Below are positions 25,106 to 52,000 of a stretch of 64,000 nucleotides of DNA, piece by piece (within the stretch, counting starts at the first letter, position 1; every line of letters starts with the position of its first letter). The notes under the pieces were generated by a model. It made no database searches, was not told the origin of the DNA, and worked only from the letters and a program-made list of their open reading frames with translations. A program made the translations under genes and the position numbers. This DNA is from a virus (Duplodnaviria > Caudoviricetes): positions 26,600 to 90,599 of the IMG/VR virus record IMGVR_UViG_3300033145_002015; one strand, 5' to 3'.

Positions 25106-25220
<115 letters not shown>

Positions 25221-26425: not shown

Positions 26426-26818
26426 TCAATTCTGATATACTAGGACTAATTCCTGAGTCGCAGGATCGACCTTCTTTTCAGTCATAATGTATCCTTGGTT
26501 CATCAATTCTTCGGAGACCACGATTTCGGTATAAGTTTTTGCCAGTTTGCCACAATTGCGGCCAAGAATTCCTCCGATTGGATTATCATAATAATCCAGG
26601 ACCACATTATAGTGATCGCCATCTTTGACCACAGCGGCCCCGTAGGTCGGCGTAGCTTCCTGGCCAATTTCAGTGATCACCCCGGCGCAATCAATTGCGC
26701 CTCCATACTTGGAAACATATTTGGCTTGTTCCGTGAATTGCAAATTCAACATCGCCAAAGCCCGCTTCAAGGTGGGAAGATCTTTGATCTTCCAGGTTGA
26801 CTTGGTGAAGTGACTCAT
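26426..26818 (-). CDS. DUF1257/Ycf35 family protein
   Basis: MSHFTK..KIKDLPTLKRAL..L N-terminal signature; LAKTYTE..V..E...QGY. Confidence 0.8.
   Translation of the reverse strand: MSHFTKSTWKIKDLPTLKRALAMLNLQFTEQAKYVSKYGGAIDCAGVITEIGQEATPTYGAAVVKDGDHYNVVLDYYDNPIGGILGRNCGKLAKTYTEIVVSEELMNQGYIMTEKKVDPATQELVLVYQN
26686..26699. repeat. dispersed palindrome copy 5 (CGCAATCAATTGCG)
   Basis: inside the DUF1257 gene, read as GAIDCA; arms extend to 18 bp. Confidence 0.9.
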
Positions 26819-29285: not shown

Positions 29286-31838
29286 TTACGTCTTCAATTC
29301 GATTTCTTCCATTTCAGCAAGGGTTTTTCCTATCTTGCACCCCACCATGATAGGGACAGATAACGTAATCCCAAAGTATTCTTGTAGCGGCAAGTTTGCC
29401 GCAATGCGGGGAACGACTTCTGTAACGCGATCAACATAGTCTTCATCCACCTCGAAGACAATCTCATCGTAAACAAATAATACCATCTTTGCTTTTGTTT
29501 TATCAAGATTGCCGCTACGATACACTTCTCTGGCGATCAGCAACCCAGTGTCTGAACTGGCTCCTTGGATTGGGCTATTGATCGCCTGCCTTTCTGCTAG
29601 AGATCTGACAGACGGATTGTCAGAATCGATCGTTGGTAATCTTCTGATCCTGCCGAATATACTTCTCACCTGCTTATACTTTCTTGCTTCCCCGATCCTT
29701 CGTTGATGCCATTTGGCTACCTTTGGATAAAGTGAGAAATATGTTTCCCGCCATTTGGTAGCCTCTTCAAGATCCAGCCGAATACCATAGTCTATATAAG
29801 CATGTCGCATAAACGTTTTTGGCATCATGCCATACATAAATCCGAAATTCACAGATTTGGCCGAGCGTCTATGCATAGCTTTCTGCTCGTCGGAAATAGA
29901 GTTCCATTCTTTTCCGACCAAGGCCATGGCGGTTCTAGTATGAATATCTCCTCCGGTTCGATAAATATCTAGCATCACCGGATCTTGTGATTCGTGAGCG
30001 ATGAATCTCAACTCCGACTGATCCAGATCGAATGCCGCCAATACCTTGCCTTCAGGGGCGGCATACAGTCTTCTCACAATCTTAGCCAAGGCAGATCGTT
30101 TTGGAATGTTGAACACATTTGGGTTGGAAGAAGCTGGTCTTCCCGTCACAGTCGATACCATCGAAATGGAAGAATAGATTCTTCCATCGGGCTTAATGGC
30201 TTTTTTGAGGCCATTGATGCTTCTACTGAGAAGCGTAAAACTTTCATGGTAATTCAAATATGCTTTGATGACGGCTTTCGTCTCATCATCCATCTTCGGA
30301 TGATCCATAAGAAGCATTAAATGATCCTTCTTGACCGAATGACCGTTCTTATCAGTCTTCATTTGCGGAGGAATCTTCTTATACTCAAACAAGAAGTCCC
30401 TCATGATATCACGCCTCGTCAGAACGAGACCCTTGTCTTCATGTGCCTTGATCAGTTTTTTAGGAAATCTACTAATGCAGAAATTCTGCTGCTCTTCCAA
30501 AATACGAGTCAGTTGCTCTTCCGCCATCGGAATATATTCTTGATCGATATAAATTCCATTGGCAGTCATCGGATAGATAACATCAGTCAGAATGGGCTGC
30601 AAGAATCTGGCAAAATAATTTCCAAGTCTTTGGTCTTCCAGCAGCTTTGTTCGCATTGAAATATATGCCCTTCTCGTTCCGTCACTATCCCCTGCCGCGT
30701 ATTTCGATACTTGAACAGGATCAGAACCAATCATATCGTCCTTATCAATGTGTTGCGACAACAGATCTTTGTTTCCTGCAGGGAGATCAGTAAAATCTTG
30801 AATGACTTGATCTAAAGAAGACATTCGATAGACATTCTCATCGATAACATGCGCCGCCGCCTGGCAATCCATTACATAGCCATTGATTTCAAAATCTCCC
30901 AAAAGCTGACGGAACCGAAGAAGATCGTACGTTCCATGAAACATCACCTTCTTGATGTCACTGCGGGCCAAAAATTCACGAAGCTCAGCGAGCCTCCGAT
31001 CATATTCCGGCAGATAACTGATCCCAATACGCATATTTTTTCGTCTACTTCCAGAAGACTTCCTTTGGACAGTGATCGTGAAATCACCTTCGTCGGGGGG
31101 AACCTCCCGCACCAGCCACATCACATATCCAACTCCTTTTTTCGGGCTGAAGGATACACATAATACCGGGCTATCCGGACTTGTCCAATCTGTTCCCTGC
31201 GTTTCAGTATCGACGGCGCACACAAAGTTCTTACGGTCCAATAAATGTCTGATGGACATAACTGTAGAATATGAGACAGGTGTCGGATCTTTGTGCTTAA
31301 AACCAGCTCTGTAAAAATCTCCAACAACTCTAAGCTGACTTTCAAAAGATATCCGCTTACTTGGATCATGCAGCATTGCAGCGGGATGGTATGCAGCAAA
31401 AACCGGACTGTTGAATTCTTTCGAGTGCATCCATTTTCCCACTACTGTTTTGAAGGAAGCTGAAGATGCCATAATCTGGCGAAAAGCAATCTCGCCCAAT
31501 GTGACAATGAGCTTTGGCTTAAGATTCTTGAGAATCTTTTCTACATTTGGCCTGCAGTGCTGCAGGACAGATTTGATTTCTTTCTTGGACATTTTCTTGG
31601 TGTCGATGGTACATCTTGCTGCATTGATGTAGCATATATCCCGATCAGCCATTCCAACAGACGAAACCGTCTTGCGCAGCTCTTCTCCGCTTGGTCCTTT
31701 GAAACATATACCAACTTTGTTTTCCACCGCTCCGGGGGATTCCCCCACGAACACCACAGATGCGGAAGGGCTCCCGTCATATTTGACTTCCCTGGCATCA
31801 TACAACAAGCATCCTTTGCATTTTTCTCGTTTGGCCAT
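29286..31838 (-). CDS. polA: family A DNA polymerase with N-terminal family-4 UDG-like domain and 3'-5' exonuclease (SPO1-type architecture)
   Basis: UDG: CKGC, VGESPG, YHPAAML; exonuclease VDTET; motif A DLDQSELRF, motif B RSAKSVNFGFMYG, motif C FVYDEIV. Confidence 0.92.
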   Translation of the reverse strand: MAKREKCKGCLLYDAREVKYDGSPSASVVFVGESPGAVENKVGICFKGPSGEELRKTVSSVGMADRDICYINAARCTIDTKKMSKKEIKSVLQHCRPNVEKILKNLKPKLIVTLGEIAFRQIMASSASFKTVVGKWMHSKEFNSPVFAAYHPAAMLHDPSKRISFESQLRVVGDFYRAGFKHKDPTPVSYSTVMSIRHLLDRKNFVCAVDTETQGTDWTSPDSPVLCVSFSPKKGVGYVMWLVREVPPDEGDFTITVQRKSSGSRRKNMRIGISYLPEYDRRLAELREFLARSDIKKVMFHGTYDLLRFRQLLGDFEINGYVMDCQAAAHVIDENVYRMSSLDQVIQDFTDLPAGNKDLLSQHIDKDDMIGSDPVQVSKYAAGDSDGTRRAYISMRTKLLEDQRLGNYFARFLQPILTDVIYPMTANGIYIDQEYIPMAEEQLTRILEEQQNFCISRFPKKLIKAHEDKGLVLTRRDIMRDFLFEYKKIPPQMKTDKNGHSVKKDHLMLLMDHPKMDDETKAVIKAYLNYHESFTLLSRSINGLKKAIKPDGRIYSSISMVSTVTGRPASSNPNVFNIPKRSALAKIVRRLYAAPEGKVLAAFDLDQSELRFIAHESQDPVMLDIYRTGGDIHTRTAMALVGKEWNSISDEQKAMHRRSAKSVNFGFMYGMMPKTFMRHAYIDYGIRLDLEEATKWRETYFSLYPKVAKWHQRRIGEARKYKQVRSIFGRIRRLPTIDSDNPSVRSLAERQAINSPIQGASSDTGLLIAREVYRSGNLDKTKAKMVLFVYDEIVFEVDEDYVDRVTEVVPRIAANLPLQEYFGITLSVPIMVGCKIGKTLAEMEEIELKT

Positions 31839-32275: not shown

Positions 32276-32629
32276 TCACCTGAATTCGAGCCCCCTCCAA
32301 TGTCGCTTTTCCAGGCGCTTTGTTGCGCCAAACTTCTGTTCAATGCTTCTGGCCAATGCTTCTGCGTTTACAGTCTCCCCGCAGGTGAAGACATCCAGGG
32401 CGGCAAATCTGAATTCGGGCCATGTATGAACGGCGAGGTGCGACTCTGCCACCAAAACTAAACATGTGACTCCATGAGGATCGAATTGCTTGGTTTGCAC
32501 TCCCAAAACGGTGCAGCCCCAATTTTTGGCTTCGGAAACCAGCAATTCTTCAAGCAGCTCCGAATCGTTGAGAATAGATTCATTGCACTCGAACAGATCA
32601 ATCAGAATATGTTTTCCTACGCCGTTCAT
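32276..32629 (-). CDS. speD: S-adenosylmethionine decarboxylase proenzyme (class 1B)
   Basis: GKHILIDLFEC, FDPHGVTCLVLVAESHLAVHTWPE (E-S self-cleavage site), DVFTCG. Confidence 0.95.
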   Translation of the reverse strand: MNGVGKHILIDLFECNESILNDSELLEELLVSEAKNWGCTVLGVQTKQFDPHGVTCLVLVAESHLAVHTWPEFRFAALDVFTCGETVNAEALARSIEQKFGATKRLEKRHWRGLEFR

Positions 32630-34137: not shown

Positions 34138-35385
34138 TTATATCGGCTCCGCGCGGCCGCGGCCGCCGATAGTCGAAGCCACGGACCAGCGATACATAGT
34201 CGCATTCCGCGCGCGCGACCCGGAAGACGCCCCGCTATTCCATACCGCGCCCGCCCGGAGCTTAACATCACCGTAGGTGCCTTGCTTGTACAGCGAGCCC
34301 TTAGTCCCAGGAAGATTGTACTCGCCGCAGGACGGAGCTGGATCCACGTTCGTCGGATCATACGGGTCGCCGTGGTTATGCTCGCCGCCGTCATAACGAT
34401 ACGATTGATCTCTCAGCCACTGCCACATCACGCCACAGCAGTCCTCGCACCCGATATTGGAGATCATCCTCCTTCCGGCGGTATCCACATGGCCGCCGGT
34501 GGTGACGGGATCAACGCTGCCCTGGATGTTTGTCTCCTCGTTGGAGCCTGCAGCGATGATTTGAAATTCAGGATCAGAAAGTAGCTGTTTCTTGACTTCC
34601 GCAAAATCGTCTACAAAATCCATCCAGTTACGGCTGTCGCTGATAGTACCGCCATGGGCTGATGCTGTACTTGCTCCCGTGCCGCTAGCCAAGTAAATGT
34701 CCACCCAAATGTTAGCCTTCTCGCTATAGACCATCCCCTCAGGACTGCATCTGGGACGATGTTTCAGATCCCAAATCGAAGCGGGCAAAATATCATTGGC
34801 GTAATAATTGGCTAGGTCGTGCTCTCTACACGTCCAGGTCACAGTACCATCATCTACGGTATCTCCTGGTGTGGTAGGCCATGTTGGCTCAGAGGCTCCC
34901 GAAGTCCCCGCTACAGTGACTTCGTACCAGTACCCATTGTCGGTCGTAGGAGCCCGGAAATCGCCCAGGCTGTATGCAGTCGATGCAGCCCAATCCGAGG
35001 GGTCGGCATCTGCGCAAAGAGTGTGAAAGCCTCCAATCTTGCGGGAATTATCCGCCGTGAAGCCTGATGGATAGGTGCTGTTCAATGAAATTTTGAATAC
35101 CAAGCTTCCATTATCGTCACAGGCATAGACATAGTAGTCTTTGCCATTAGCTACTGTGCCGGTATCAAGGTCGGTAGCCGTGCTGACATTTGTATCCGTG
35201 TCTATGAGAAACCAACTATCACCGATGCGGAGCGGAATAATGTCTGAGCCTTTTACCACCACCTTATCATGGTCAGTTGCATGGGCTTCTAGGATCCGAT
35301 CTAACTTATTGAGATAAAAATTAGAAAGAACCGCCGCCGCGATCATGTTATCACTTTCGTCCTTTGTGACTTTTCGATTAGCCAT
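34138..35385 (-). CDS. Mtd-like receptor-binding protein with C-type lectin (FGE-like) fold; candidate DGR target
   Basis: IWDLKHRP, GMVY..NIWVDIYL, GCEDCCGVMWQW and C-terminal AG..WNSG..SGSRARN....W......IGGRG; internal CBM5/12-like WAASTAYSLGD...DGTVTW. Confidence 0.8.
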   Translation of the reverse strand: MANRKVTKDESDNMIAAAVLSNFYLNKLDRILEAHATDHDKVVVKGSDIIPLRIGDSWFLIDTDTNVSTATDLDTGTVANGKDYYVYACDDNGSLVFKISLNSTYPSGFTADNSRKIGGFHTLCADADPSDWAASTAYSLGDFRAPTTDNGYWYEVTVAGTSGASEPTWPTTPGDTVDDGTVTWTCREHDLANYYANDILPASIWDLKHRPRCSPEGMVYSEKANIWVDIYLASGTGASTASAHGGTISDSRNWMDFVDDFAEVKKQLLSDPEFQIIAAGSNEETNIQGSVDPVTTGGHVDTAGRRMISNIGCEDCCGVMWQWLRDQSYRYDGGEHNHGDPYDPTNVDPAPSCGEYNLPGTKGSLYKQGTYGDVKLRAGAVWNSGASSGSRARNATMYRWSVASTIGGRGRAEPI

Positions 35386-37067: not shown

Positions 37068-38009
37068 CTATTCAGTCTTTTCTTTCCAGTGTTCGAGCCA
37101 ATCCATAATGGATATGGCTTGGCGATCTTTGATCATTTTACGATGATTTTTACATTTGTTCAACACATCTTCGAGGATTGCCTGGAGAACCCTCGGATTA
37201 CCTTTCCGATGCTGTATAAACCTGGTAGCTAGCTCCTCTCCGCCGAATATATAGGTCGCAATAGTTCGATTTCGAGTATAGTCATCACCATTCCAATAGT
37301 AATTCCTTTTTTCTCCATGATGAAACAATGGAGGTCCTGGCATGATCCATTTCTTCTTTCCTAGAACTGCCAAGGTATAGTTCATGAAGTTCTCCCCGCC
37401 GCCGTAGATTCCTAATTCGGTCGGCCAGCCACCAACTTCGTCATACAATTCTCTAGTGATCATCATACCGCAGGTGGACATGCAAGGAACTTCATATGGA
37501 TACTCTCTGTCCCGATATCTAGTGAAACTGTAATGAATCTCTCCATGATCCAGATTTACGACTAATTTATAGATCAACTTCCGCCATTCCAGAATATGAT
37601 AGGTCAGCGGGAGATGAATAGACCCATTCAACTGTTCATGCGCTTCCTGATAAACCCTCAGCATATTGTAAATGGAATTTCTACTCACGATGCAATGAGC
37701 ATCAATAAACAACAGAAACTTGCCTGAAGATTCGGCCACACCTAAATTTTTGGCCTGCCAATGTGATAGTTTGGCGTCGTACTTCAATGGTTTGAGCCAC
37801 GGGAGACCTCTCGCTACGGCAGGAATCTGTTCACTCGCACGGTCGGGCTTTTTCCCTCCGCCTTGCTTAGCGACCTCATCGCAAAAATTATCCACTGCCA
37901 GAATCTCAAAGTCCACTCGATCTCGAAGTTCTTCTGCAATTGATCTTATGGTGAATACAACCTGCGGATATTCCAGACAATATGGAACTATCACTGACAG
38001 CTCAGCCAT
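37068..38009 (-). CDS. GT-A glycosyltransferase with polypeptide GalNAc-transferase (GT27/GT60)-like motifs
   Basis: LSVIVP, EILAVDN, LLFIDAHC (DxH), PCMSTCGMMITRELYDEVGGW..LGIYGGGEN, then H. Confidence 0.8.
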   Translation of the reverse strand: MAELSVIVPYCLEYPQVVFTIRSIAEELRDRVDFEILAVDNFCDEVAKQGGGKKPDRASEQIPAVARGLPWLKPLKYDAKLSHWQAKNLGVAESSGKFLLFIDAHCIVSRNSIYNMLRVYQEAHEQLNGSIHLPLTYHILEWRKLIYKLVVNLDHGEIHYSFTRYRDREYPYEVPCMSTCGMMITRELYDEVGGWPTELGIYGGGENFMNYTLAVLGKKKWIMPGPPLFHHGEKRNYYWNGDDYTRNRTIATYIFGGEELATRFIQHRKGNPRVLQAILEDVLNKCKNHRKMIKDRQAISIMDWLEHWKEKTE

Positions 38010-38014
38010 AACAT

Positions 38015-38503
38015 TTATTCTCCTTTCTTTCCGATATGCTGAGGAGGTTTCCGAAAACCACGTTCGATCAAAATCCGTTCTTTGAATGCTGAAAAACCGA
38101 TCACTAGATCTGGAGCTAGATATGAAATATCCTCGATCCGAACGGATGCGAAGTAAACAATCGGAGACCAAAACATCTTAACCTGATATTCTCCAGGATT
38201 CTGCGCAAGTGTCAGATAGAATCCTTCGGATTTTTTCAGCAATCCATAATAATCAATCACTAAAGCCTTTGGATAATCAAATGAGATTCCCATCAGCTTC
38301 CCGAATCTTGTGGAAGACAATCTCCCGTGTCGAACGGGAACCAGAATATGTTGTGAAAAAAATCCCTGCTCAAAGCCATTGATGATGACCTGCTCTTCAA
38401 AAGCCTGAAGGTATTTGCGAAAGGCATCACCTTTCGGCATCGGTTCAATTAAACTGTTCCCAGACCGTAAAGAACGCCTTATTTCCTTTTTTTCTGAATC
38501 CAT
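38015..38503 (-). CDS. hypothetical protein within the glycan cluster
   Basis: fills the gap between two GTs; probable start near 38440. Confidence 0.5.
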   Translation of the reverse strand: MDSEKKEIRRSLRSGNSLIEPMPKGDAFRKYLQAFEEQVIINGFEQGFFSQHILVPVRHGRLSSTRFGKLMGISFDYPKALVIDYYGLLKKSEGFYLTLAQNPGEYQVKMFWSPIVYFASVRIEDISYLAPDLVIGFSAFKERILIERGFRKPPQHIGKKGE

Positions 38504-39194
38504 GCTTCACCATCCATTCTCGCCCGATGTCACGAACTGTCGGCGGAGATAATGGTTTGGCGTATACACCATATCTCCACCTTAGAACTTCTTCCATGAG
38601 TTGAGGATGCCCGTGATGAAACTGCTTTTCGGGATTGCTGTTTGAAGATAACCATACAACCGTGTTTTTTACGAATTCGCCTCTTATCAAAGACGGATGA
38701 CCACAGAAACCTACTTCCAATTTATGTTCGGCGGGGCATTCAAAGAATTCTCCATTCCACGGGAAGAAAAAACGCCAATTCTTAGAATACGTGTCGCTCG
38801 TTGGTCTGAACGGCAATCGCAGGATCGCAAGATCTTGGTGTCGTTCCATGATCGACAGCATTTCTGACATATCAATCTTCGATACAATTTCCCAATCATC
38901 TTCAAGATGAAAAACAAAAGGCGCTTCGACTGCCTTCCATACCCTGATAAATGCGTTGGGAAAATTAGCCTGCGATGGGAGAAACGGCATAACTTGGTGC
39001 TGTTTTGGATCAAATACTGTTGTTACGAAGTCCAAGGTTTCGGCTTGGCACGAAGTCCCGATTGGATCAATATTGATAATAAGACGATATCGACCATTAT
39101 ATTCGACATTATCAAGAAATGACTCCAGAGTTCTGACAATGACTTCTGGTCGGCAGGTTGCCGTCATGGTTATGTCAACCCAAGAATTGAACAT
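38445..39194 (-). CDS. GT-A fold glycosyltransferase (GT2-like)
   Basis: VDITMTATCRPEVIVRTLES, IINID, FVFHLEDDW. Confidence 0.7.
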   Translation of the reverse strand: MFNSWVDITMTATCRPEVIVRTLESFLDNVEYNGRYRLIINIDPIGTSCQAETLDFVTTVFDPKQHQVMPFLPSQANFPNAFIRVWKAVEAPFVFHLEDDWEIVSKIDMSEMLSIMERHQDLAILRLPFRPTSDTYSKNWRFFFPWNGEFFECPAEHKLEVGFCGHPSLIRGEFVKNTVVWLSSNSNPEKQFHHGHPQLMEEVLRWRYGVYAKPLSPPTVRDIGREWMVKHGFRKKGNKAFFTVWEQFN

Positions 39195-39937
39195 ACCTCG
39201 GCCTCCTGCTCTTCCACATTGTCCGGGAGCATAAGCTCCATGTTCTTGTACAAATTTTTATGATTGATCTTGCGATCTTTTATTGTCTTATATTTTTGAA
39301 GCCCATCCAATGTTGGTTTTGGCATGCCAAGTATATTGCATAAACCTAAAATATAGGATTCGTCGGATAGTCTCGCCAATTCAGAAAGAACAACCTTTCC
39401 GCCAGCAGCTAGAACCCGTTCTCCGCAACGCTTTGCTCTGCTTGCCATTTCTAAAGTATACCAATAAATCAATTGATAATCTGATAGCTTGGTCCAAACA
39501 GGTCCCAGCTTATGGATACAGATTGAAGATACTGGATGAATGTAATAAGTAAGACCTCGTTTGCTCCTTCCTGGAATATCGTTCAGCCTGAGCATAGACA
39601 GGCAAATGTCACGGTAGGGTCTTCGGTGGATGATGAGATCATAATGAATACCCAAGTCAGATAATGCCTTATCAAATTCAATCAAAAAGAAATGGCTGGC
39701 CTCAAAATAGATTCGACAATTCTGAGCCGCAATTGATTGCAGCTTCTCATCTTTCCAAAAACTTTTCGGATCGGCTCCAGCGCAAACTTTTTCAATCCAT
39801 GGCGCATACGCTGGTTGAGGTTCGTGGAAGGCTTTCGTGGACGGATTATCATGATACAAAGCTGAAAACAGAGAAGCGATATATTTGGTCCCGCTTCTGG
39901 CAGGTGCGGCCACGAATATGAATTGTCTCGGAATCAA
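39170..39937 (-). CDS. sulfotransferase-like protein
   Basis: FVAAPARSGTKYI (5'-PSB loop), FHEP, HRRPYRDICLS (3'-PB-like). Confidence 0.65.
   Translation of the reverse strand: MIPRQFIFVAAPARSGTKYIASLFSALYHDNPSTKAFHEPQPAYAPWIEKVCAGADPKSFWKDEKLQSIAAQNCRIYFEASHFFLIEFDKALSDLGIHYDLIIHRRPYRDICLSMLRLNDIPGRSKRGLTYYIHPVSSICIHKLGPVWTKLSDYQLIYWYTLEMASRAKRCGERVLAAGGKVVLSELARLSDESYILGLCNILGMPKPTLDGLQKYKTIKDRKINHKNLYKNMELMLPDNVEEQEAEVCSILGLT
39728..39741. repeat. dispersed palindrome copy 8 (CGCAATTGATTGCA)
   Basis: inside the sulfotransferase-like gene, read as LQSIA. Confidence 0.9.
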
Positions 39938-40578
39938 GATTCACTTTCCTTTCGATTAAAAAACATCAAATTTCGATACCAAGCACTCATTTCTTTCTGG
40001 CGCTTCCATGGTTCCAGATTCCATCGAATTCTATTCAGAATTTCATCATCATAGATGAATCCAGCTTCAGAGAATTTGGAAATCCAATACTCGGGTGGTT
40101 GGCAGTTCACATGATGAAGTCCCCCCTGTCCCGGAGGAGCTGCTGAAATCAGCAGCTTATCTGATAATGCAATCAGATTCTGGACCACAACATCACTATA
40201 TTCTTCTTCAATATGTTCCAAGACTTCAAGGCAAATGGCCAAATCAAATCTATCATGAGTCCATTCCAAAGGTTTTCGCAAGTCCGCAATAATGAGCCTA
40301 TCAGTCGGAGGCAGAAAAAATTCTTTGCATGCGGGGGAGCCGTCCAATCCCCAAGCGTCCAGTCCAATCCGGAGAAAATAATCCACCAGTTCCCCCACTG
40401 CGCATCCAACATCAATCACACGTTTGACCTTCAGAACATCCAGAATCGCCACACACATCGGCTCAGCACGCCATTGCAGACGATGGCGGGATTTGAAAAA
40501 ACGCGGCGGATATAATTTGTTCAATCTTTCCATCCTAAATGCCTCGGAGCTTTCCTCAACAATGATAGCCCTGCCCAT
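39934..40578 (-). CDS. class I SAM-dependent methyltransferase
   Basis: VIDVGCAVG, DLAICLEVLEHI, HHVNCQPPEYW. Confidence 0.85.
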   Translation of the reverse strand: MGRAIIVEESSEAFRMERLNKLYPPRFFKSRHRLQWRAEPMCVAILDVLKVKRVIDVGCAVGELVDYFLRIGLDAWGLDGSPACKEFFLPPTDRLIIADLRKPLEWTHDRFDLAICLEVLEHIEEEYSDVVVQNLIALSDKLLISAAPPGQGGLHHVNCQPPEYWISKFSEAGFIYDDEILNRIRWNLEPWKRQKEMSAWYRNLMFFNRKESES

Positions 40579-41087
40579 GGTCCTGGAATCGTGAAGATCT
40601 CCAAATAATCGTATCTTGGATTAGTCCGAATCTCCCATGCTGCTTCCCACGCATTGGAGCAGTACGAATCGGAAAGTAAATCGGATTTTACCGGGTAAGT
40701 ATCATGAAGAAGAATAATCCCTGTAAAATCTCTGACGTATGGAGACCATGCATCAACATCAGCCAGAACGGCTTCTTTTCGATGATCCCCATCGATAAAT
40801 AAAAGATCGATAGTCCCAAGATCCCAAGATGCAGCAACCGATAGAGAATCTGCCTCAAATAAAACGACACCGGGTCCTTTCTTGACATTGGGCTTGATCT
40901 CGATATCCACGCCGACAGCTCTCGGTACAAGTTTGGAAATCGTATTGAAGGTATACCCATGTTGTATGCCAATCTCTACGTAAAGCTCAGGTTCCATGAG
41001 CTTTACCAACTCCACCATCAGATCTCTGAATTCCTGTACTCTCCATTTCCTTATTGCGTACATAACTTCCTCAATTCCGAAGGCCAC
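40521..41087 (-). CDS. class I SAM-dependent methyltransferase (Methyltransf_24-like)
   Basis: YVEIGIQHG, IDLLFIDGDH, ILLHDT. Confidence 0.85.
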   Translation of the reverse strand: MAFGIEEVMYAIRKWRVQEFRDLMVELVKLMEPELYVEIGIQHGYTFNTISKLVPRAVGVDIEIKPNVKKGPGVVLFEADSLSVAASWDLGTIDLLFIDGDHRKEAVLADVDAWSPYVRDFTGIILLHDTYPVKSDLLSDSYCSNAWEAAWEIRTNPRYDYLEIFTIPGPWAGLSLLRKAPRHLGWKD

Positions 41088-42175
41088 CGAAAAGCGGTGG
41101 GATATTGTCGAAGAATTCCAAACAACATCGTCATATCCGGAAGAACACGACCATAGAATCCATTCTGTGATACAAAAAAGTCGTGGGCTTCTGTTTTACG
41201 CTCTTCGTCGATTTCGTTCAGGAAAGTATGAATTTCATATGCACAAGTCGTCGGATCGGCTGAATCCGATAATACCCTAGCAACCCTGTCATTTTTAGTA
41301 AACATAGGAGAATGCCGATCCGGAGCAGAAATCATTACTGGAGTCCCACAGCACAGAGCTTCCAGAGGACCCCTATCATTCTGTCCATGTCCTCCAAAAT
41401 AAACAAAGAGTTTGGATTGATTATAGACATTCACCATATCATGATTCGGAAGCATCCCGGGAAGAGTTACATCCAAACTATGATGCTTGATATTGTCCAA
41501 AATGTGGTTTGTATAAGTTCCACGTAGAATCCTTCCCGGAAGGATCGCCTTGAGATTCTTCCCGAAGATCCGACGGTATTCAATCAAGGTTCGGATTCCC
41601 TTCCATTGCCCTTTTTTGTCGTGGATATGGGAAGCCCCAATGCAGATATCAAATGGACGTTTTATGCCGCGAATGTAATAAAAAACCTTTGGATTAATCG
41701 GTTTTCGGAAAAAGAAATGAAATCTTTGAGTTGAATCTATCCAATATCCCTCAGTCAAGTCATTCAGAATAATGTGCCAGAATTTCCATTTCTGCCTGCC
41801 GGTATTGGCCGCATAACAAATTGTCCAATGATTCCGTTCTGCCATATCAGATAAAAATGGAAACCAGGATCTAAATCCTCCACGGCACCAAATTATATCG
41901 TTAGGCTGAATAAAGTCATAGATGTAAGACATTTCAGGAATGACATATCCATGAATCTTTCCGTGACTAAATCGGCCCGGCGAGACTGCTGATTCAATAA
42001 AGATCAAGATATCATCAATCGTACCTTCGTCGAGCATAGCTTCCAATAAGGCGAAATATCCTTGTGTCGGCAATGTCGTAGTGAAAAAATTTTCGCTGAT
42101 TCTATCCCGATCCCAAGGATGCTTCGATCCTAATTTGGCTTGCCGGTCTGCTACATAAAGAAAGATCAATCTCAT
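41051..42175 (-). CDS. GT-B glycosyltransferase (GT4-like)
   Basis: KKGQWKG, VYNQSKLFVY, DRGPLEALCCGTPV. Confidence 0.75.
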   Translation of the reverse strand: MRLIFLYVADRQAKLGSKHPWDRDRISENFFTTTLPTQGYFALLEAMLDEGTIDDILIFIESAVSPGRFSHGKIHGYVIPEMSYIYDFIQPNDIIWCRGGFRSWFPFLSDMAERNHWTICYAANTGRQKWKFWHIILNDLTEGYWIDSTQRFHFFFRKPINPKVFYYIRGIKRPFDICIGASHIHDKKGQWKGIRTLIEYRRIFGKNLKAILPGRILRGTYTNHILDNIKHHSLDVTLPGMLPNHDMVNVYNQSKLFVYFGGHGQNDRGPLEALCCGTPVMISAPDRHSPMFTKNDRVARVLSDSADPTTCAYEIHTFLNEIDEERKTEAHDFFVSQNGFYGRVLPDMTMLFGILRQYPTAFRWPSELRKLCTQ

Positions 42176-42849
42176 GGCGATTGCTGCCCTCCAAGCAGGC
42201 TGAGGAAAAGATATTTCTCTTTCTTTCGCTTCGCTCGCATAACTTTCACACCATGCTTACTTACGGAAGCTCCTACTCTATGCCACACTACTGTGTTACT
42301 GGTCTTATACCAGAAGTATCCTAATCGTAGAGTATGATACCATATCCAGGCATCGCCATAAAAGATTTCTAACTGTGGCGGAATCGGTGGGATTTTGGCA
42401 TATAGGCTCGCCCGAATCGTCCATGCCCATCCTTCGTACTTCCGTACTCTGAATATCGACCAGCTAGGGTCTTCATGCCACTTTAGGAATTCATTCTTAT
42501 CGAATATAGTATGGGGAATTGCTACTCCGCAGCGATAAATATCGAAAAGAAGCAAAATTTCAGAAAAAAAGTTAGGTTTTAATAGCAGGTCATCATTCAG
42601 AACTGAAATGAAATCCACCTTATGTCCCAAAGCCAATTGCTTTCCGAACTCCCATGATGAATTTACCCCCAATTTTTTTGAGGCTCTGCGAATTTCAACA
42701 TTCAGATTCCCTTGCCAAGAAAAACCTTCTTCGGTGTTATCGATGACAAATACCACGCTAGGCCGAATAGTATTCCCTGCTAGGCTATCCAGCATAGGTC
42801 CAGCAAATTCCGAAGAAGCCACTGGAACTATTACAGCTATTCTGTCCAT
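42172..42849 (-). CDS. GT2-like glycosyltransferase
   Basis: IAVIVPV, VFVIDN, VLNDDLLL, FYGDAWI. Confidence 0.75.
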   Translation of the reverse strand: MDRIAVIVPVASSEFAGPMLDSLAGNTIRPSVVFVIDNTEEGFSWQGNLNVEIRRASKKLGVNSSWEFGKQLALGHKVDFISVLNDDLLLKPNFFSEILLLFDIYRCGVAIPHTIFDKNEFLKWHEDPSWSIFRVRKYEGWAWTIRASLYAKIPPIPPQLEIFYGDAWIWYHTLRLGYFWYKTSNTVVWHRVGASVSKHGVKVMRAKRKKEKYLFLSLLGGQQSP

Positions 42850-44099
42850 CCCATCGCCTCCCCCATCGCCGGAGCGTAGTATTTATTATAGATATGATCA
42901 TAGTTATATGATCTCTTCATAAACGTCTTGGTCATGACAGCCTCGTTTTCAAACATTCTACCGAGAATGATTTTGGCAACATCCCGGTAATAAGCATTTC
43001 GGTCTTTTATATCGACGCTGTGGTGAAACGATCCGAAGTCAAAGTAAAGACCCGTGAGCCCCGTCACCTCCAACATCATTTGGAGCGATTTATTGAATAC
43101 ACAAAATACGCCTCCCGCCAAGGCTACTTCAGGGACTACCAATCCAAAACTTTCTTCACGTGTCGGAAAGATGAACAGATTTGCGCAATGCATCAATTCT
43201 CGAAGCATCTTTTTGGGAAGCCCGAGCGCCACTTCCTGCTTCCATTCCGAAGAAAAAATGAATTCGTCATGCGGAATCAATCCTCTGGATGCAGCCAATT
43301 TGTAGAATTTCCGAATATCTTCTTTTCGTTGTCTTCCAGTGGCCCATTGATTGGCTATGACCAAACATACCGAAAAATTCATCTTCTTCATCGCTGAAAA
43401 GATCTCAATCACATCCTGAACACCTTTAGCGGTAAGCCGATCTGTAGATGCGGGATAGATCTTTACGATATCTGCCGAAAGGAGCTTCGGATAGCTGTCA
43501 ATGAAGTCACAAGTATCCTGACCGAAATCGAACCAAGTCCGAATGTCCTTGATGTGTGGGATTACTCTTACATCATTGATTGTTCCTCGAAATTGCTCTG
43601 CAACCCTAATTTGCTCTGTCTTATTGGGAAAGACAATCTTGTGATATCCTTGATATCTTCTGATTTCCCACCAATCTCGAAACGCACTCGGAATACTGTG
43701 AACCCAATGGAACCATTTGACTTTCGGCAAAGCGGAGGATGCTATTTCAACTCCCAATGCATAGGGAAGATTCCATCCGGTGAAAATGATATCATGCGTA
43801 AAGCAATAATCCGAATCCGCCAATTCTTTTTTCAGCACATCCGCAGTGTTATTGGCAATCGTATAGTGTTCAGTGCTTACTGCTGCACGGGTGGCATAGT
43901 CTTGTAGATGAGCGAAGGGAAGGACATTTTTGATCGTGACATCTTCGGAAAAAGAACCACTGCTATAGACTTCCGAGACTATGAGGTCTACTTGATGCCC
44001 ATACCGACGGAGCATTTTGGCCTGATCCAATACAATACCTGTCAACGAATAACCCGGGTTGAAATCTTGGAAGGTCGTTAAAATCGTTACCTTTGCCAT
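42837..44099 (-). CDS. GT4 glycosyltransferase
   Basis: YSLTGIV..LRRYGHQVDLI; FIFPTREESFGLVVPEVA. Confidence 0.85.
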   Translation of the reverse strand: MAKVTILTTFQDFNPGYSLTGIVLDQAKMLRRYGHQVDLIVSEVYSSGSFSEDVTIKNVLPFAHLQDYATRAAVSTEHYTIANNTADVLKKELADSDYCFTHDIIFTGWNLPYALGVEIASSALPKVKWFHWVHSIPSAFRDWWEIRRYQGYHKIVFPNKTEQIRVAEQFRGTINDVRVIPHIKDIRTWFDFGQDTCDFIDSYPKLLSADIVKIYPASTDRLTAKGVQDVIEIFSAMKKMNFSVCLVIANQWATGRQRKEDIRKFYKLAASRGLIPHDEFIFSSEWKQEVALGLPKKMLRELMHCANLFIFPTREESFGLVVPEVALAGGVFCVFNKSLQMMLEVTGLTGLYFDFGSFHHSVDIKDRNAYYRDVAKIILGRMFENEAVMTKTFMKRSYNYDHIYNKYYAPAMGEAMGWTE

Positions 44100-44123: not shown

Positions 44124-45194
44124 TTAAACCGTTGTTGTGGTAGTCGTGGAACTCGTCGTGGTTGTAGTTGTTGTGGTTGTTTGTCGATAACTATACTCCA
44201 CACATAGCTTTGATCTCTTCTCCGAATCTCCGGCTCTGATCGAATAGAATTCCCGCAATGCTCCAAGGGTACTACCATTATCTTCCAGGATAAGCATTAC
44301 GTCTCCCACCCCGGGCCAGTCCGGCCTGTCGATTACTTCTTGGAGCGAGGCAGATAGATCAGGAGACACGTATTCATTGCCGGCACCCCATCCTTGAATG
44401 TTAGTCCATTCAATCGTTTCCGATGTCATTTTCAGATTATCCAATTCTACTTTGGACGTAGGATTGACGGGGGAAGCCGTATCATTAAACCCACACTTCA
44501 CATTCACGAATACGGGCGTTCTGGTTCCGTACGCAGTAAAATATGCCCTGGCACTTTCGATTACGGAACCTCTGGGGATATTAAGATTTCGATATCGTAT
44601 ATACGCTCGATTTTTAGATGATGAGAAATCTCCAAAATCAATATAATCCAATTCGAGAGAAGCGTCCTGTGGATCGCCATCTGGACGGGAATATATAGCG
44701 AAACCGATGTAATACAAATTTGAAGATAAGCCATAATCCGATAGAACCAGAATTTGCTCTTCGCCTCCATTATCGGTTATGGTGTAATCTTCCGATGGAC
44801 TATAGATTGCATTTTTTGCGATCAGAAACGATACCCAAGTATCATCGATATCCATTAAAAACATTTCAATGGCTGTGGGAGAATTAGAAGAATCTGAAGA
44901 AATAGAGGCCCTCATTTTGATTTTCATGTGGGGACCTGTTGTATAATTATCTACAGGACTTCCATCATTCCATTCCCAATAGGTGATATTATCCTGAACA
45001 GCACTGCCGTCATGAATAGTGCGTAAGCGAACAGAGCTTATAGTAGAATCAAAATCAACAGAATGAGAATATCCAGAACCGGATACAACATACGGCACTG
45101 TCGGACATGCCTCCGCAGTAAGACCAACTGTAAACCGCCAAGAATGGCCTGCATCACATATTCCGGTCGCCCAAGGTTCCCACATATTTAACAT
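44124..45194 (-). CDS. accessory virion protein with DNRLRE/CBM-like domain and poly-Thr tail
   Basis: RAYIRYRNLNIPRGSVIESA..SPDLSASLQEVIDRPDW; ends QTTTTTTTTTSSTTTTTTV. Confidence 0.65.
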   Translation of the reverse strand: MLNMWEPWATGICDAGHSWRFTVGLTAEACPTVPYVVSGSGYSHSVDFDSTISSVRLRTIHDGSAVQDNITYWEWNDGSPVDNYTTGPHMKIKMRASISSDSSNSPTAIEMFLMDIDDTWVSFLIAKNAIYSPSEDYTITDNGGEEQILVLSDYGLSSNLYYIGFAIYSRPDGDPQDASLELDYIDFGDFSSSKNRAYIRYRNLNIPRGSVIESARAYFTAYGTRTPVFVNVKCGFNDTASPVNPTSKVELDNLKMTSETIEWTNIQGWGAGNEYVSPDLSASLQEVIDRPDWPGVGDVMLILEDNGSTLGALREFYSIRAGDSEKRSKLCVEYSYRQTTTTTTTTTSSTTTTTTV

Positions 45195-45237: not shown

Positions 45238-46527
45238 CTATACTGTTGTCGTAGTAGTTGAACTGCTACTGGTAGTAGTCGAACTACTCGTAGTGGTAAA
45301 TGACGACGATGTGGTCGAGGAGCTGGTCATAGTAGATGTCGTGGTAGTAGACAATGTCATAGTCGTTGTAGAAGTAGTAGTCGTTGTAGAGGTAGTAGTC
45401 GTTGTCGAGGTGGTAGTTGCCATGAAAATATCAAAATAAGGAGATTCTCGATCATTTTCATAGTCAGCTTCTCCAATTCCCCGATAACTCATAGTCGCCC
45501 ACGAATCTGAGATCAACCCTATTGGGCTGTTAGGGAGTAGAGTGACCTTCCAAAAGTACCATTTAGTGTTGGGGCCTTCTGGATTGTCGGAAATAAACTT
45601 AAGGCAATATCTTTTAGATGGTGCCATATTGGCGTAGATTACATTTGGGTTGGGCCTGGTTCCCCGCACGAAACGAGCCAGATTATCAGAAGAAAATTCA
45701 TCAAGAGTGAATTGAAGCGTATAATCCATCTTGAGGATTACGCTATCGCCCACCACTAAACCGCCTGACCTCGACAGATAGCTTTTTATTTCTTCAGAAG
45801 ATACCACTACATTGAGATCCGTACAATTGCCGACATCAGAAAATGCAGGAGCTGTGTATGTAAGATCGAAACCAAGCGGAGGCCAATAGACGAAACTTGA
45901 TGCCCCGAAATTTATGGTTACGCCATTTCTATCGGAACCTTCTCCACTAATATGAATAGCCGGATAAATATCTTCCGATATACCAGACAGATCAAATGCT
46001 TCTAGTGTTCCTTCTGCAGGATTTCCATTGATTTGCCACTCTCCATTTTTGGAGAACCAAACCTGTTTAGTATCAGCATCGTAAGCCACCCCGATGACAT
46101 CCCCATCAGTATAGGAATATGACAGATACGGGTCCGGCTGTGTATAAGAAGCGTTGTATGCCAAAGTGCCGTTTGACCAATAACCACAAGAATTGGCGTC
46201 AACCCCTAATTTGGCAGCTAAATTGGCATTTCTGGTCGCGTAACCTATACCGATAGTATCTACACCTAAAGCGCCCCCGGTTTCATTGATCGTGACTTCC
46301 CAATAGAATTTTCCCGAAGATACTGTATTCTGCGCCAGAACGACGCCGACTCCGCCGGTAAGATCTATATGTTGAACCTTAAGGCCACCCGCAATCAATT
46401 GCAGCTTGGGACTCATATAGTTTTCGTCCAAAAGCTGCGTTGCCATCGAATCCGTCCAGTTGGCAATGTAGAGGACACCTCTCCCTAAGGTATATAATTC
46501 ATAGCTTGGACTTCTGGGGATTGTCAT
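45238..46527 (-). CDS. second tail tube paralogue with SPRY/B30.2 insertion and about 60-aa Thr/Ser tail
   Basis: shares LYTLGRG, DVGNC and FxSDNPxGPN..FW.V.L with 61253-61819; SPRY motifs GKFYWEV..IG, GDVIGVAYD..VWFSKNG..YPA. Confidence 0.8.
   Translation of the reverse strand: MTIPRSPSYELYTLGRGVLYIANWTDSMATQLLDENYMSPKLQLIAGGLKVQHIDLTGGVGVVLAQNTVSSGKFYWEVTINETGGALGVDTIGIGYATRNANLAAKLGVDANSCGYWSNGTLAYNASYTQPDPYLSYSYTDGDVIGVAYDADTKQVWFSKNGEWQINGNPAEGTLEAFDLSGISEDIYPAIHISGEGSDRNGVTINFGASSFVYWPPLGFDLTYTAPAFSDVGNCTDLNVVVSSEEIKSYLSRSGGLVVGDSVILKMDYTLQFTLDEFSSDNLARFVRGTRPNPNVIYANMAPSKRYCLKFISDNPEGPNTKWYFWKVTLLPNSPIGLISDSWATMSYRGIGEADYENDRESPYFDIFMATTTSTTTTTSTTTTTSTTTMTLSTTTTSTMTSSSTTSSSFTTTSSSTTTSSSSTTTTTV
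46390..46403. repeat. dispersed palindrome copy 9 (CGCAATCAATTGCA)
   Basis: inside a CDS, read as LQLIA. Confidence 0.9.
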
Positions 46528-47542: not shown

Positions 47543-48001
47543 TTATGCCGTAGTTGTAGTAGTCGAACTGCTGGTCGTAGTCGAACTGCTAGTAGTGGTC
47601 GAGCTAGAGGCAGTCGAGCTAGTCGTAGTAAATGACGATGTTGTAGTCGAAGAACTGGTCGTAGTGGATGTTGTAGTGAATGAGGTCGTAGTAGTGGTCG
47701 TCGTCGAGGTAGTAGTTGTCGTGGAGGTGGTAGTAGAAATCACTTCCATAAACTCCGCACCGGCAATATCAGTATCGGAACCATACGTCCCCTCAAAGGA
47801 TAACATCGTCAAAACTTTATCCCCTGGAGCCTTGTCTGATATGTGCACTTTCCAAGAGCCGTCAGCGGAATTGCTTTGCCCAGATCCGATTCTGGTGTCA
47901 CGATTATCTTTATCGTAGACGTCGATATTACAGGAAACCGACGTGATCGGATCGCCCTTTTTATCTTTTACTGTGCCTCTGACTTGTCCGATTCTGGCCA
48001 T
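47543..48001 (-). CDS. small Ig-like virion protein with about 64-aa Thr/Ser tail
   Basis: VRGTVKDKKGDPI..SADGSW beta-sandwich start; C-terminal 42 percent of the protein is almost all T/S. Confidence 0.6.
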   Translation of the reverse strand: MARIGQVRGTVKDKKGDPITSVSCNIDVYDKDNRDTRIGSGQSNSADGSWKVHISDKAPGDKVLTMLSFEGTYGSDTDIAGAEFMEVISTTTSTTTTTSTTTTTTTSFTTTSTTTSSSTTTSSFTTTSSTASSSTTTSSSTTTSSSTTTTTA

Positions 48002-49067: not shown

Positions 49068-52000
49068 CTAAGATGTTCTCCCCAGAATGATATAATCCGT
49101 ATCTGTTGTCAGCGTAGAGCCATCGGACATACCATCATCTCCAGATGAAGCTGGCGTAGGAGTCGCCACACCATGAACACGGCCTAAAAGCGAGAAAGGC
49201 GATCCGGTATCCAAAACTGTACCTTGGGACATTCCATCTTCTGAAGCATAAAACGTATATTGCGGAGGAGCAGTCGTAGTTGTAGTAGAGCTTCCGGTGG
49301 CTGTCGTGCTGGTCGTAGTCGAACTGCTCGTCGTTGTAGAGCTTGATGTCGTAGTAGTCGTTGTTGGACTCCCGCCGTATTTACCAATCATGACGTTTTC
49401 ATCGGACCCATAGAAGACCCCGTTCATGCTATAACCATCATCCGTGGATTCGGACGGATAGTAACACTGCTCGCCGGGCAGGGCACCTTGTGAGCATTCA
49501 TGAGCTGTAATCTCATAAATTCCCGGCGGGAGATCATCATCCCATTGAGTAAGCACTTGAATCCTAAGATACCGATGCGCCGTGCTGTTGGTAAATTCAT
49601 GTTCCTGAACTTCGCTATTGTTTTCTTGCTCTCCTTCGTATATTTGCTTCCATTCCTGCCCATCCACACTGATCAGCACCTTAAAATCACGAATACTGCC
49701 CGGATAGACGCTCATCGTGATTTTTTCGATTACCTTTTCTTCGCCAATAGGCCATGTGTACTGCCACCACGCATCAAAATCACATTCTTCCGCCATCCAA
49801 TAAGTATCCACATCATCATCGCACGCAAATTCTGGACCGTTATCGCCTTCTCCGCCCGACGGAGTACTCTGGCCTAAGATAGAAGATGCTTTCGCCTCGC
49901 CGCCAGACAAGGCGTCATCAAAGTACTCCATACAAGTAGGAAGATCCGGTTCCTCAGTGATTGTCTGTCGTGATATATAATCGACATCCTGAGCCGCAGT
50001 GACTCTAATGATCTCGCTTCCGATATCATCTTCCGTAATTCCTCCCACCCGACAGACCATATTTTCGATATTGTAAGGAGCGTAAGAAAATCTGAACAGA
50101 TCGCCGGGCTCCAGTCTAAAATGATTCCTGTTGACGGGAAACTGAAGCAAAGCCAAAGGATATGCTTCTTTGGAAAGCTGTCTTCGTACTCTCCACATTA
50201 CAGTTTCTTCGTTGTTGAACATTCCATAGGTTTCGGATCTAGCAAGTGTTCTATTGACAATCTGCTTATTCGCAACATCATAAACCTTGACCGTTTTTTC
50301 TTTGAAATCCGAACAGGTGAGTGCCTGCCCACAGGTGGATGCCGCCGATGATGATGGAGGAATACTCGCAATTGATTGCGGGGGATATTCCGAATCTGTT
50401 GGATAATAAATCGCTGCTCCATCTTCAAAATCGCTGCTGCAATCCAGACTGCCCCATCGGCAAAGATAATAGGAACCTCCAGTAATATAATAGATCAAAG
50501 CGACGAGTTTCCCGTCCAATACATCAATGGACTTGAAATAAGAGCCTTCACTTATGAGCCTGTTATCTACACCGTCAATCCATGTCTGAAGAGCATAGGC
50601 ATGATCCCAACTCTGACCGGTAGTCGGGAAGCCTTCCCATACATAAATGTACCTTCCCCATCCGATTACCAGTCCAGGATAACTTGGATCCCACGCCACA
50701 GCCCCACCTCCAGCAATAATTAAATCACCAGCGTGGGAAGCATAAAAATCATGTTGGAATGTATTTACAATACCACCAAAGATTCCATCATGCGCCCTCA
50801 CTGTAACTACATAGCTGGAAGGCCCATCAACACTCAAAGTTACCAAATCAGTATAGAGATCCAGATCACGGATTTCGCTTGTCAGCCCCGAATACTCTGT
50901 GATCTCCGTCTGCGTCAGATATTCACTGAAGTCAAATTGAGAAGATAATGTATAGCCCTCAATATAGACTTTTTGGCCGTCTCCCCAATGTCGTACCAAA
51001 TATAAGATATTTCCATCGAAAGCCATCCCCACAATCGGATAACCTTCTTTCTCCGTGACTCCAGATATTGCAGTCGTGACACCCTTATGTCTTTTAAGAA
51101 TGTTGTCGCTGTGCCTGACTACCGTGTAACCTGATTTAGCTTCATCAGATCCCCCAGTAGCAGTTATGCGTTTAGGATAAGATGCAGAAATCTCATTTTT
51201 CGTATCGAGCCATCCAGGGCGAGTCAGAATGGGTTTTTCTTCGTTGGCAATATCTTCGTCAGTGACGTGCGGCATATCTTCAACTTCTAAATCTTTTCTG
51301 AGGAGCTTCAATCCAAATTTCCCTACAGATAAGACTCCTTCCCCGGCAACATGCTCCCGCACAACCGTATACCTCAAAATACCATCAATATGTTTCAGAA
51401 GCTCCTGAAGAACCGACAATACTTCCTTGCGAGAAGAAATCGTATAGCTTATTCCAACTCCGTCTCTCCGCAACACAGAGGCACAACTTGAAAAGGAACC
51501 CAAGTCGATGAATTCGGTAGGAAGATCACCACAATCAGTCAAGAGATGATAGATACCATGCACTGGATTATAGTTGTAAACTCCCACCAAACCGCTTCCA
51601 AAATCTTCATATTCGGGAGCTTTTTGCACGACGAATTTCAAGATCGGCGCACGATTATATTGCCCGATATAGCAATCTTTCATTCGAGCATAGCAAAGTC
51701 CTCGATATGCCGGAACCAGCGACGGGTCTTCGGCATATGTTGTCATCACATCATCAACAGGTTGGGTGGAAGTCCCAAAATAAAACCGAAACCATCCAAT
51801 TCCACCCACATTGATATCTACAAAGCCATCTCCTGGATCTTCTTCACTCCCGCACCAAACCAGATCTTCATTTCGATAAATGGCCAATAGTTTGGTGACC
51901 GGCCCCCTACACAATCCTACCGACCAAGACAAATAATATTTATATCCTGTTATTACAGTCTGAGAATGGCCTCCACCGCCCTTTCCACCAGTTTCAATAG

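Follow-up and report, generated by a model that had tools for sequence, protein, structure and literature searches.

A phage-borne glycosyltransferase related to GT27 polypeptide GalNAc-transferases and its candidate poly-threonine substrates

Introduction

The window analysed here is a stretch of 64,000 nucleotides (positions 26,600 to 90,599 of the IMG/VR record IMGVR_UViG_3300033145_002015), taken from a 90.6-kb contig. The contig stems from an uncultured tailed phage, which has nearly all of its genes on the minus strand. Its replication and head genes include a family A DNA polymerase, a DnaB-like helicase, a primase, a RecA-like protein, and a portal, while its tail region comprises a head-tail adaptor, tail completion, major tail protein, chaperone, tape measure, and distal tail proteins. 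Nine genes for glycan enzymes form one block within the tail region (37068–44099), directly following the genes of poly-threonine (poly-Thr) proteins on the same strand. The downstream end of this block is the gene of P0001 (37068–38009, minus strand), a DxH-type GT-A glycosyltransferase (GT) of 313 amino acids, which is the subject of this study. An earlier note, made from the sequence alone, had assigned it the signature of polypeptide N-acetylgalactosaminyltransferases (ppGalNAc-Ts; GT27/GT60) and proposed it as the initiating enzyme for threonine tails. The GT27-like character of the protein was examined with Pfam, profile searches of PDB sequences, an AlphaFold2 (AF2) model, and structural searches by Foldseek and VIA.

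The P0001 gene, its motifs and its family

The reading frame of P0001 begins with an ATG at 38009, behind an AAGGAG ribosome-binding site and 5 nt beyond the stop codon of the preceding gene, and this start position is common to P0001 and 29 of 29 aligned homologues. The gene was therefore delimited as 37068–38009, and a longer TTG-started open reading frame (ORF) reaching up to 38171 was ruled out as a real gene by the homologue starts. The strings quoted in the earlier note (KFLLFIDAHC, PCMSTCGMMITRELYDEVGGWPTELGIYGGGENF, and PGPPLFHH) were all recovered in the translated protein. Its motifs are D103-x-H105-C106, a GGWP..ELGIYGGGE206N block, and H230-H231. Across 30 family members with 54%–71% identity, the residues E13, N41, D103, H105, C106, G204-G205-E206, N210, H230-H231, and R246-N247 are invariant, and the motifs are not due to chance.

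Pfam assigns only GT2-type GT-A domains to P0001, with PF00535 as a match at E 1.5e-10 that passes the gathering threshold (41.7 bits vs. a cut-off of 23.3) and is shared by 30 of 30 members. This domain does not separate GT2 from GT27, since the clusters of chordate ppGalNAc-Ts also carry PF00535. The protein ends at residue 313 and Pfam detects no Ricin_B_lectin in it, so the ricin lectin domain is absent as had been claimed. No signal peptide or membrane anchor was found in P0001, in which the first strand of the fold begins at residue 4 and leaves no room for an anchor.

A total of 802 relatives were identified in a large protein collection at E up to 1e-3, and an exhaustive search of 50%-identity representatives gave 312 clusters. 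The family is compact, and the Atlas clusters nearest to P0001 consist of 91%–97% viruses. Among 185,579 species genomes, it was found on only four contigs, all from metagenome-assembled genomes. Three of the four belong to bins assigned to Deltaproteobacteria or Desulfobacteraceae, a hint as to the host group. In cultured phages, a tblastn search of 50,697 phage records with P0001 gave Tunturiibacter phage Tunturi_4 as the sole match. This relative (L170, PP885687.1:1567-2565) shares 24% identity, has the motif LDNHC, and is located between the terminase and the portal. The Tunturi_4 branch may use acceptor sites other than poly-Thr.

Relationship to GT27, GT60 and other glycosyltransferases

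O-glycosylation of the mucin type, with a GT27 enzyme as initiator, is regarded as a eukaryotic process of the Golgi. In a phmmer search of P0001 against PDB sequences, ppGalNAc-Ts formed the top eight of ten weak matches, the best at E 0.006. The family profile placed them on top as well, with a best E of 1.2e-5; eight GT27 entries were among the top 14, above or interleaved with TarP, a mannosyltransferase, and heparosan synthase. In the HMMER alignment, IIPFxNE of P0001 falls on IIPFHNE of GT27, FxDAHC on FLD(A/S)HC, HH on the metal-binding GH, ELGGWP..ELGIYGGGEN on ELGGYD..LEIWGGEN, and Y-x-RN on YSRN after a flexible loop. The Gal/GalNAc-T (WGGEN) motif is likewise present, with ELGIYGGGEN aligned on EMEIWGGEN and Trp replaced by Tyr. 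D103, H105, and H230/H231 of P0001, which align with the DxH motif and the downstream metal-binding His of GT27, are predicted Mn2+ ligands.

The AF2 model of P0001 reached a predicted local distance difference test (pLDDT) score of 94.7 and a predicted template modelling (pTM) score of 0.92, and its confidence dips only at residues 231–240, which correspond to the mobile loop of GalNAc-Ts. When the model was compared with PDB by Foldseek, ranks 1–49 among the matches listed were all GT27 ppGalNAc-Ts, with E from 1e-16 to 7e-13. An exhaustive VIA search of 48,161 chains, which is independent of Foldseek, gave mouse GalNAc-T1 (8v9q) with Z 26.7 and 285 residues aligned at 3.0 Å, and Toxoplasma GalNAc-T3 with Z 25.1 and 283 residues. 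The next-best GT-A enzymes were WrtF (19.6), K4CP (19.0), and SpsA (18.3). The aligned region takes in all of the GT27 catalytic domain and reaches beyond the GT-A core on its C-terminal side. In the structural comparison that the earlier note had set as a check, the model thus groups with GT27 catalytic domains and not with sugar-acceptor GT2s. P0001 is a soluble GT-A glycosyltransferase, predicted to be of the Mn2+ type, and belongs to a phage-borne family that is the closest known non-eukaryotic relative of the GT27 ppGalNAc-transferase catalytic domain.

P0001 and the GT27 ppGalNAc-Ts (mouse GalNAc-T1, human T2, T4, T10, and T12, and Toxoplasma GalNAc-T3) are alike in a GT-A domain over ~285 residues, the metal ligands DxH plus a third His, the WGGEN-like block, the NE after strand 1, and the RN after the flexible loop. 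Ser/Thr-rich mucin-like acceptors, presumed for P0001, are a further likeness. The phage protein differs in having no ricin-type lectin domain, stem, or membrane anchor, and it would therefore act in the bacterial cytoplasm and not in the Golgi. It also differs in the upstream VDD, whose second Asp is Asn in P0001 (AVDN), and in the candidate acceptor tails of its phage, which are nearly pure Thr with no prolines.

GT60 comprises the UDP-GlcNAc:polypeptide alpha-GlcNAc-transferases (uridine diphosphate N-acetylglucosamine as donor) of Dictyostelium and Trypanosoma (PF11397, 'GlcNAc'). They are DxH-type GT-A enzymes related to GT27, with Thr or hydroxyproline acceptors, and some of them are cytoplasmic. 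The GT60 half of the proposed signature was not supported: with an E cut-off of 0.1, the PF11397 model gave no match in any of the 30 members, and no GT60 structure was among the fold-search matches to P0001. The GT27 half was supported by the profile, Foldseek, and VIA searches alike. The structural neighbours in BFVD include phage proteins named 'Glycosyltransferase, GlcNAc' at E 7e-12 and a template modelling (TM) score of ~0.6. Bacterial stand-alone enzymes with GT2 and Glyco_transf_7C domains (~295–311 amino acids; Bacillota, Actinomycetota) have predicted structures as close to P0001 as GT27 or closer; these and the LanC-like or PqqD-fused enzymes differ in being cellular, not viral. TagN of Staphylococcus aureus, considered as a GT27-like enzyme with a non-peptide acceptor, is unrelated, being described in the literature as a TagB-like domain plus a GT1-family (WabH-like) domain.

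Candidate substrates with threonine and serine tracts

The Thr tails of the earlier note are real, as six ORFs on the same strand were found to carry Thr/Ser (T/S) runs of 12–60 residues. Five of the six tracts lie at the very C-terminus, where the protein closes with TTTTTA or TTTTTV, and the sixth is internal. The tracts use all four Thr codons in about the proportions seen elsewhere in the genome, which marks them as products of selection on the protein and not as DNA repeats.

All six proteins are candidate substrates encoded on the minus strand. The head-tail adaptor Ad1 (63183–63863; phrog_477, E 3.4e-16) has 226 amino acids and a 19-residue Thr tail, and the major tail (tube) protein (61253–61819; phrog_807, E 1.8e-29) has 188 amino acids and ends in TTTTTTSTTTTTA. 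The internal tract occupies residues 981–1011 of a 1,077-amino-acid tail protein with a discoidin (F5/8 type C) domain (49068–52301; phrog_1101, E 2.4e-71; PF00754, E 1.1e-15), ~65 residues before its C-terminus. A 152-amino-acid protein (47543–48001) consists almost entirely of Thr and Ser over its C-terminal ~65 residues. The remaining two are a 429-amino-acid SPRY protein (45238–46527; PF00622, E 1.2e-12) with a region that matches the Ig-like major tail protein family (phrog_807) and a T/S tail of ~60 residues, and a 356-amino-acid protein (44124–45194) that carries 17 T/S residues as its C-terminal tail.

In cultured phages, 243 records contain a homologue of the tail tube protein, and none of these records was matched by tblastn of P0001. 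Two of these homologues that were fetched (L260 and L261; Casjensviridae) have 380–382 amino acids and are annotated as major tail proteins, one of them 'with Ig-like domain', and neither has a T/S run longer than 3. The tail tube protein of the window is half their length and has its 12-residue Thr tail where they have Ig-like-annotated extensions. It would look as if a glycan tag had replaced a protein decoration.

Co-occurrence of the enzyme and poly-Thr tracts

With the family alignment as query, 50 loci were found in IMG/VR. The enzyme family keeps company with poly-Thr virion proteins across many phages, at least 38 of the 50 records having poly-Thr tracts. T/S runs of at least 7 residues lie within 10 kb of the enzyme in 28 of the loci. 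All 48 of the 48 near-enzyme T/S ORFs are on the strand of the enzyme, and 14 of the runs end at most 6 residues from the stop. Among the other 24 records, which include two loci whose T/S runs had fewer than four Thr, runs of seven Thr codons occur elsewhere in 10, including four of the four records that are at least 90% complete. The records without Thr-codon runs are mostly fragments of 10–30 kb, and a reversed-pattern control matched once. The co-occurrence spans unrelated phage types, both siphovirus-like and jumbo-like. In the opposite direction, the enzyme was found in 4 of 35 viral records picked solely for 12 consecutive ACN codons, compared with at least 71 of the 2.9 million IMG/VR records; this suggests strong enrichment, although both figures are counts of found records and not base rates. 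A search with the DNA polymerase as bait, intended for a control set of related phages, gave no pattern match.

The glycan-enzyme cassette

The presence of the other cassette genes, all on the minus strand, was followed by tblastn of the window proteins against the 50 loci. The most conserved partner of the DxH enzyme is a GT4-like GT-B enzyme of 420 amino acids (42837–44099), found in 39 of the loci and elsewhere on the same record in two further ones. A separate search with this GT-B gave 43 further records, of which 21 hold the DxH enzyme and most others are fragments. Its AF2 model (pLDDT 93.3) had generic GT4 enzymes as top VIA matches, with Z of 16–18 (a Rickettsia glycosyltransferase, GlgM, MshA, PimA, and BshA), while its Z to the protein O-glycosyltransferases SdgB, OGT, and GtfA was 11.8–13.1.

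A conserved protein of 141 amino acids (38015–38440) has homologues in 18 of the 50 loci, often adjoining the DxH enzyme, and in some relatives the cassette is reduced to three genes in the order GT-B, 141-amino-acid protein, and DxH enzyme. It had no match in Pfam, PHROG, NCBIfam, or Atlas and may be an accessory subunit or specificity factor. Next to it, a 249-amino-acid protein with an EDD motif (38445–39194; 26 of 50 loci) is a variable member that appears GT-A-like and had no match to Pfam or PDB sequences. Two further variable members are a GT-B glycosyltransferase of 374 amino acids (41051–42175; PF00534, E 6.3e-5; 26 of 50 loci) and a small DxD-type GT2-like glycosyltransferase of 225 amino acids (42172–42849; PF00535, E 8.8e-4; 14 of 50 loci), the latter of which is fused to a Methyltransf_24 domain in another locus (L250).

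Three genes encode putative modifying enzymes. They are a class I S-adenosylmethionine (SAM) methyltransferase (Methyltransf_23; 39934–40578; PF13489, E 1.4e-9) present in 29 of 50 loci, a SAM methyltransferase (Methyltransf_24; 40521–41087; PF13578, E 9.8e-14) present in 11 of 50 and weakly matching the rhamnosyl O-methyltransferase/CmcI family, and a sulfotransferase-like protein (39170–39937) present in 2 of 50. The last was assigned by a weak match to PF00685 (E 0.0018) that lies under the curated cut-off.

Which enzyme acts first

The favoured interpretation, to which somewhat better than even chances are given, is that P0001 is the initiating polypeptide O-glycosyltransferase for the poly-Thr tails and that the cassette decorates the virion. 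P0001 is preferred as initiator because of its GT27-specific fold, the gene content of an unrelated jumbo-like phage, a fusion to a PqqD domain, and the generic GT4 likeness of the GT-B. The jumbo-like phage (L004, IMGVR_UViG_3300028603_000085) encodes a family member, a distant DxH paralogue (hhalign probability 94.5%), and a methyltransferase, and two tiny (APTTTTT)n proteins directly flank the DxH enzymes and the methyltransferase on both sides (L004:8176-11231). No GT-B was found on its 48.7-kb record. The block is located shortly downstream of a 498-amino-acid ORF that was taken as a candidate major capsid gene. The fusion protein, P0257 (L259:1313-2584), is a distant relative on a bacterial contig (pairwise E 6e-25) that keeps the DxH, GGEE, and HH motifs, carries a PqqD domain, and adjoins an ABC permease; it may be a glycosyltransferase for peptides akin to ribosomally synthesized and post-translationally modified peptides (RiPPs). 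In a structural neighbour cluster of P0001 in Atlas, LanC-like domains occur in 36% of the members. PqqD-like domains serve peptide recognition in RiPP biosynthesis, and PqqD and LanC-like domains are hallmarks of peptide-modifying pathways. The missing Thr tail in tail tube homologues from cultured phages without the enzyme also speaks for a peptide acceptor.

Several observations weigh against this interpretation. The identity of P0001 to GT27 is only 13%–17%, and in Atlas the bacterial GT2+Glyco_transf_7C clusters (~300 amino acids) have TM scores of 0.84–0.88 vs. 0.80–0.81 for the chordate ppGalNAc-Ts. A WGGE-type block is also found in GT7 galactosyltransferases, which act on sugar acceptors, and animal ppGalNAc-Ts prefer prolines, of which the phage tails have none. 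Poly-Thr tails were absent from the six Tunturi_4 structural proteins checked, despite the distant homologue in that phage. The GT-B co-occurs as tightly as the DxH enzyme does, and since it is equally conserved, gene presence alone cannot tell which enzyme acts first. Furthermore, the DxH enzyme is missing from one 98-kb record of 82% completeness, G099, which encodes the GT-B together with two DxD-type GT2 enzymes and poly-Thr runs. G099 is the sole real exception. A second record with GT-B and no DxH enzyme (G065) was set aside as its contig breaks off within the gene usually found ahead of the DxH enzyme, and a record with the DxH enzyme and no GT-B (G007) as it is cut next to the enzyme.

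The best placed of the alternatives, although unlikely, accepts that the cassette glycosylates poly-Thr proteins and lets the GT-B or another enzyme initiate, with the DxH enzyme extending the glycan in the manner of the GT7 beta-4-galactosyltransferases. The frequency of the GT-B in the 50 loci, its pairing with the DxH enzyme in 21 of the 43 further records, and the content of G099 are all consistent with such an order. The known bacterial Ser/Thr O-glycosyltransferases GtfA, SdgB, and OGT are GT-B enzymes, and the Glyco_transf_7C domain that GT7 has as well was weakly matched in 2 of 30 family members (E 0.055 or worse) and above the cut-off in a fused relative, P0131. However, the GT-B model is nearer to generic small-molecule or glycan GT4 enzymes than to GtfA, OGT, and SdgB, and the match of the DxH enzyme extends over the complete GT27 catalytic domain, ~6–7 Z units above all sugar-acceptor GT-A enzymes. 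The L004 arrangement, in which DxH enzymes are flanked by mucin-like proteins with no GT-B, and the PqqD domain of P0257 also argue for P0001 as initiator, and G099 is incomplete.

Phage glycosyltransferases are best known from the modification of DNA and of host O-antigen (PMC12619734), and the cassette might accordingly act on targets such as hypermodified DNA bases or a host envelope polymer (superinfection block, serotype), leaving the poly-Thr tracts as unglycosylated linkers or spacers. This is quite improbable given that the cassette lies inside the tail-gene block right after the poly-Thr proteins and on their strand, and that the pairing of enzyme and tracts recurs across siphovirus-like and jumbo-like phages. 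In addition, no genes for base hypermodification, nucleotide-sugar synthesis, or flippases were found in Pfam scans of the larger ORFs, and P0001 has no membrane segment and a predicted fold of the peptide-modifying GT27 type. Finally, that the GT27 likeness is convergent or generic to GT-A and that the enzyme is an ordinary host-derived polysaccharide GT2 would agree with the Pfam families, the low identity, and the bacterial GT2 clusters noted above, but is highly improbable as the NE, DxHC, GGWP/ELGGY, WGGEN-like, metal His, and RN elements align in order over ~280 residues, three independent searches are topped by GT27, and the family is overwhelmingly viral.

Proposed pathway and comparison with known phage glycosylation

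With P0001 as initiator, the enzyme would bind a host UDP-sugar through D103, H105, H230, and a metal ion in the host cytoplasm late in infection. It would transfer the first sugar to Thr and Ser hydroxyls of the poly-Thr tracts in the head-tail adaptor, the tail tube, and distal tail proteins. The conserved GT4-like GT-B would then add the next sugar, and the variable glycosyltransferases, the two methyltransferases, and the sulfotransferase-like protein would elaborate the glycan, so that the assembled virion would bear mucin-like glycan brushes. The use of host nucleotide sugars and a cytoplasmic action before or during assembly are suggested by the Pfam scans of the larger ORFs, which gave no nucleotide-sugar genes, flippase, or membrane anchors in the enzymes. 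Peptide acceptor and donor sugar, the succession in which the enzymes act, and a retaining mechanism are all inferred. The phage probably sugar-coats its own particle, because a GT27-like, predicted soluble enzyme adjoins six poly-Thr virion proteins. A broader proposal, put forward tentatively and doubtful as a whole, is that tailed phages of anaerobic sediment bacteria run a full cytoplasmic mucin-type pathway, initiated by a lectin-less homologue of animal ppGalNAc-transferases, on poly-Thr tags that replace Ig-like domains of the tail and that their enzyme family is the evolutionary sister or source of the eukaryotic GT27/GT60 initiators.

The nearest known biological precedent is the mycobacteriophage system, whose enzymes are unrelated in sequence. 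O-glycosylation of mycobacteriophage virions, involving Che8 gp110, Corndog gp35–gp38, and Myrna, is reported by Freeman et al. (2023; cited in PMC12363180 and PMC12619734). The likeness lies in phage-encoded glycosyltransferases and an O-methyltransferase among the structural genes, which in mycobacteriophages are reported to modify the C-termini of capsid and tail tube subunits and to give a virion coated with glycans (PMC12363180; PMC12619734). Corndog gp35–38 have no detectable similarity to any cassette enzyme (best BLASTP E 0.05–0.19 over short segments), and no mycobacteriophage was matched by tblastn of P0001 among the 50,697 phage records. The phage of the window further differs in its poly-Thr tracts on at least six candidate acceptors and in its GT27-like key enzyme.

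The papers searched contained no description of a GT27-like phage enzyme or of poly-Thr phage tails. To our knowledge, mycobacteriophages are the only phages for which virion glycosylation has been demonstrated to date, and the enzymes involved there are unrelated. What would be new here is phage virion O-glycosylation, as proposed, by an enzyme homologous to the eukaryotic mucin initiators. If true, mucin-type chemistry would extend to bacterial viruses, and the origin of the GT27/GT60 fold would gain a testable case. This would also suggest glycan brushes on many environmental phages, with effects on adsorption, stability, or recognition by hosts and grazers. A Thr tag and its enzyme would also offer a compact, portable tool for site-directed glycoengineering in bacteria.

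Other features of the window

A homopolymer T tract of ~115 nt lies between ORFs at 25106–25220 on the plus strand (poly-A on the gene strand) and could be either an assembly artefact or a real tract. A tail protein at 34138–35385 (minus strand) matches the 'Mtd second domain' (PF21916, E 4e-23), named after the tropism determinant of Bordetella phage BPP-1, as well as phrog_11262. A search of the window for template/variable direct repeats of 60 nt or longer gave none, so a diversity-generating retroelement is not evident around this Mtd-like protein.

The phage also encodes an S-adenosylmethionine decarboxylase (32276–32629, minus strand; PF02675, E 1.2e-33), an auxiliary gene of the polyamine pathway. 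The family A DNA polymerase (29286–31838, minus strand) carries an N-terminal domain of the uracil-DNA-glycosylase superfamily (PF03167, E 7e-22). Unusually, the portal gene is placed immediately downstream of this polymerase, away from the genes of the tail.

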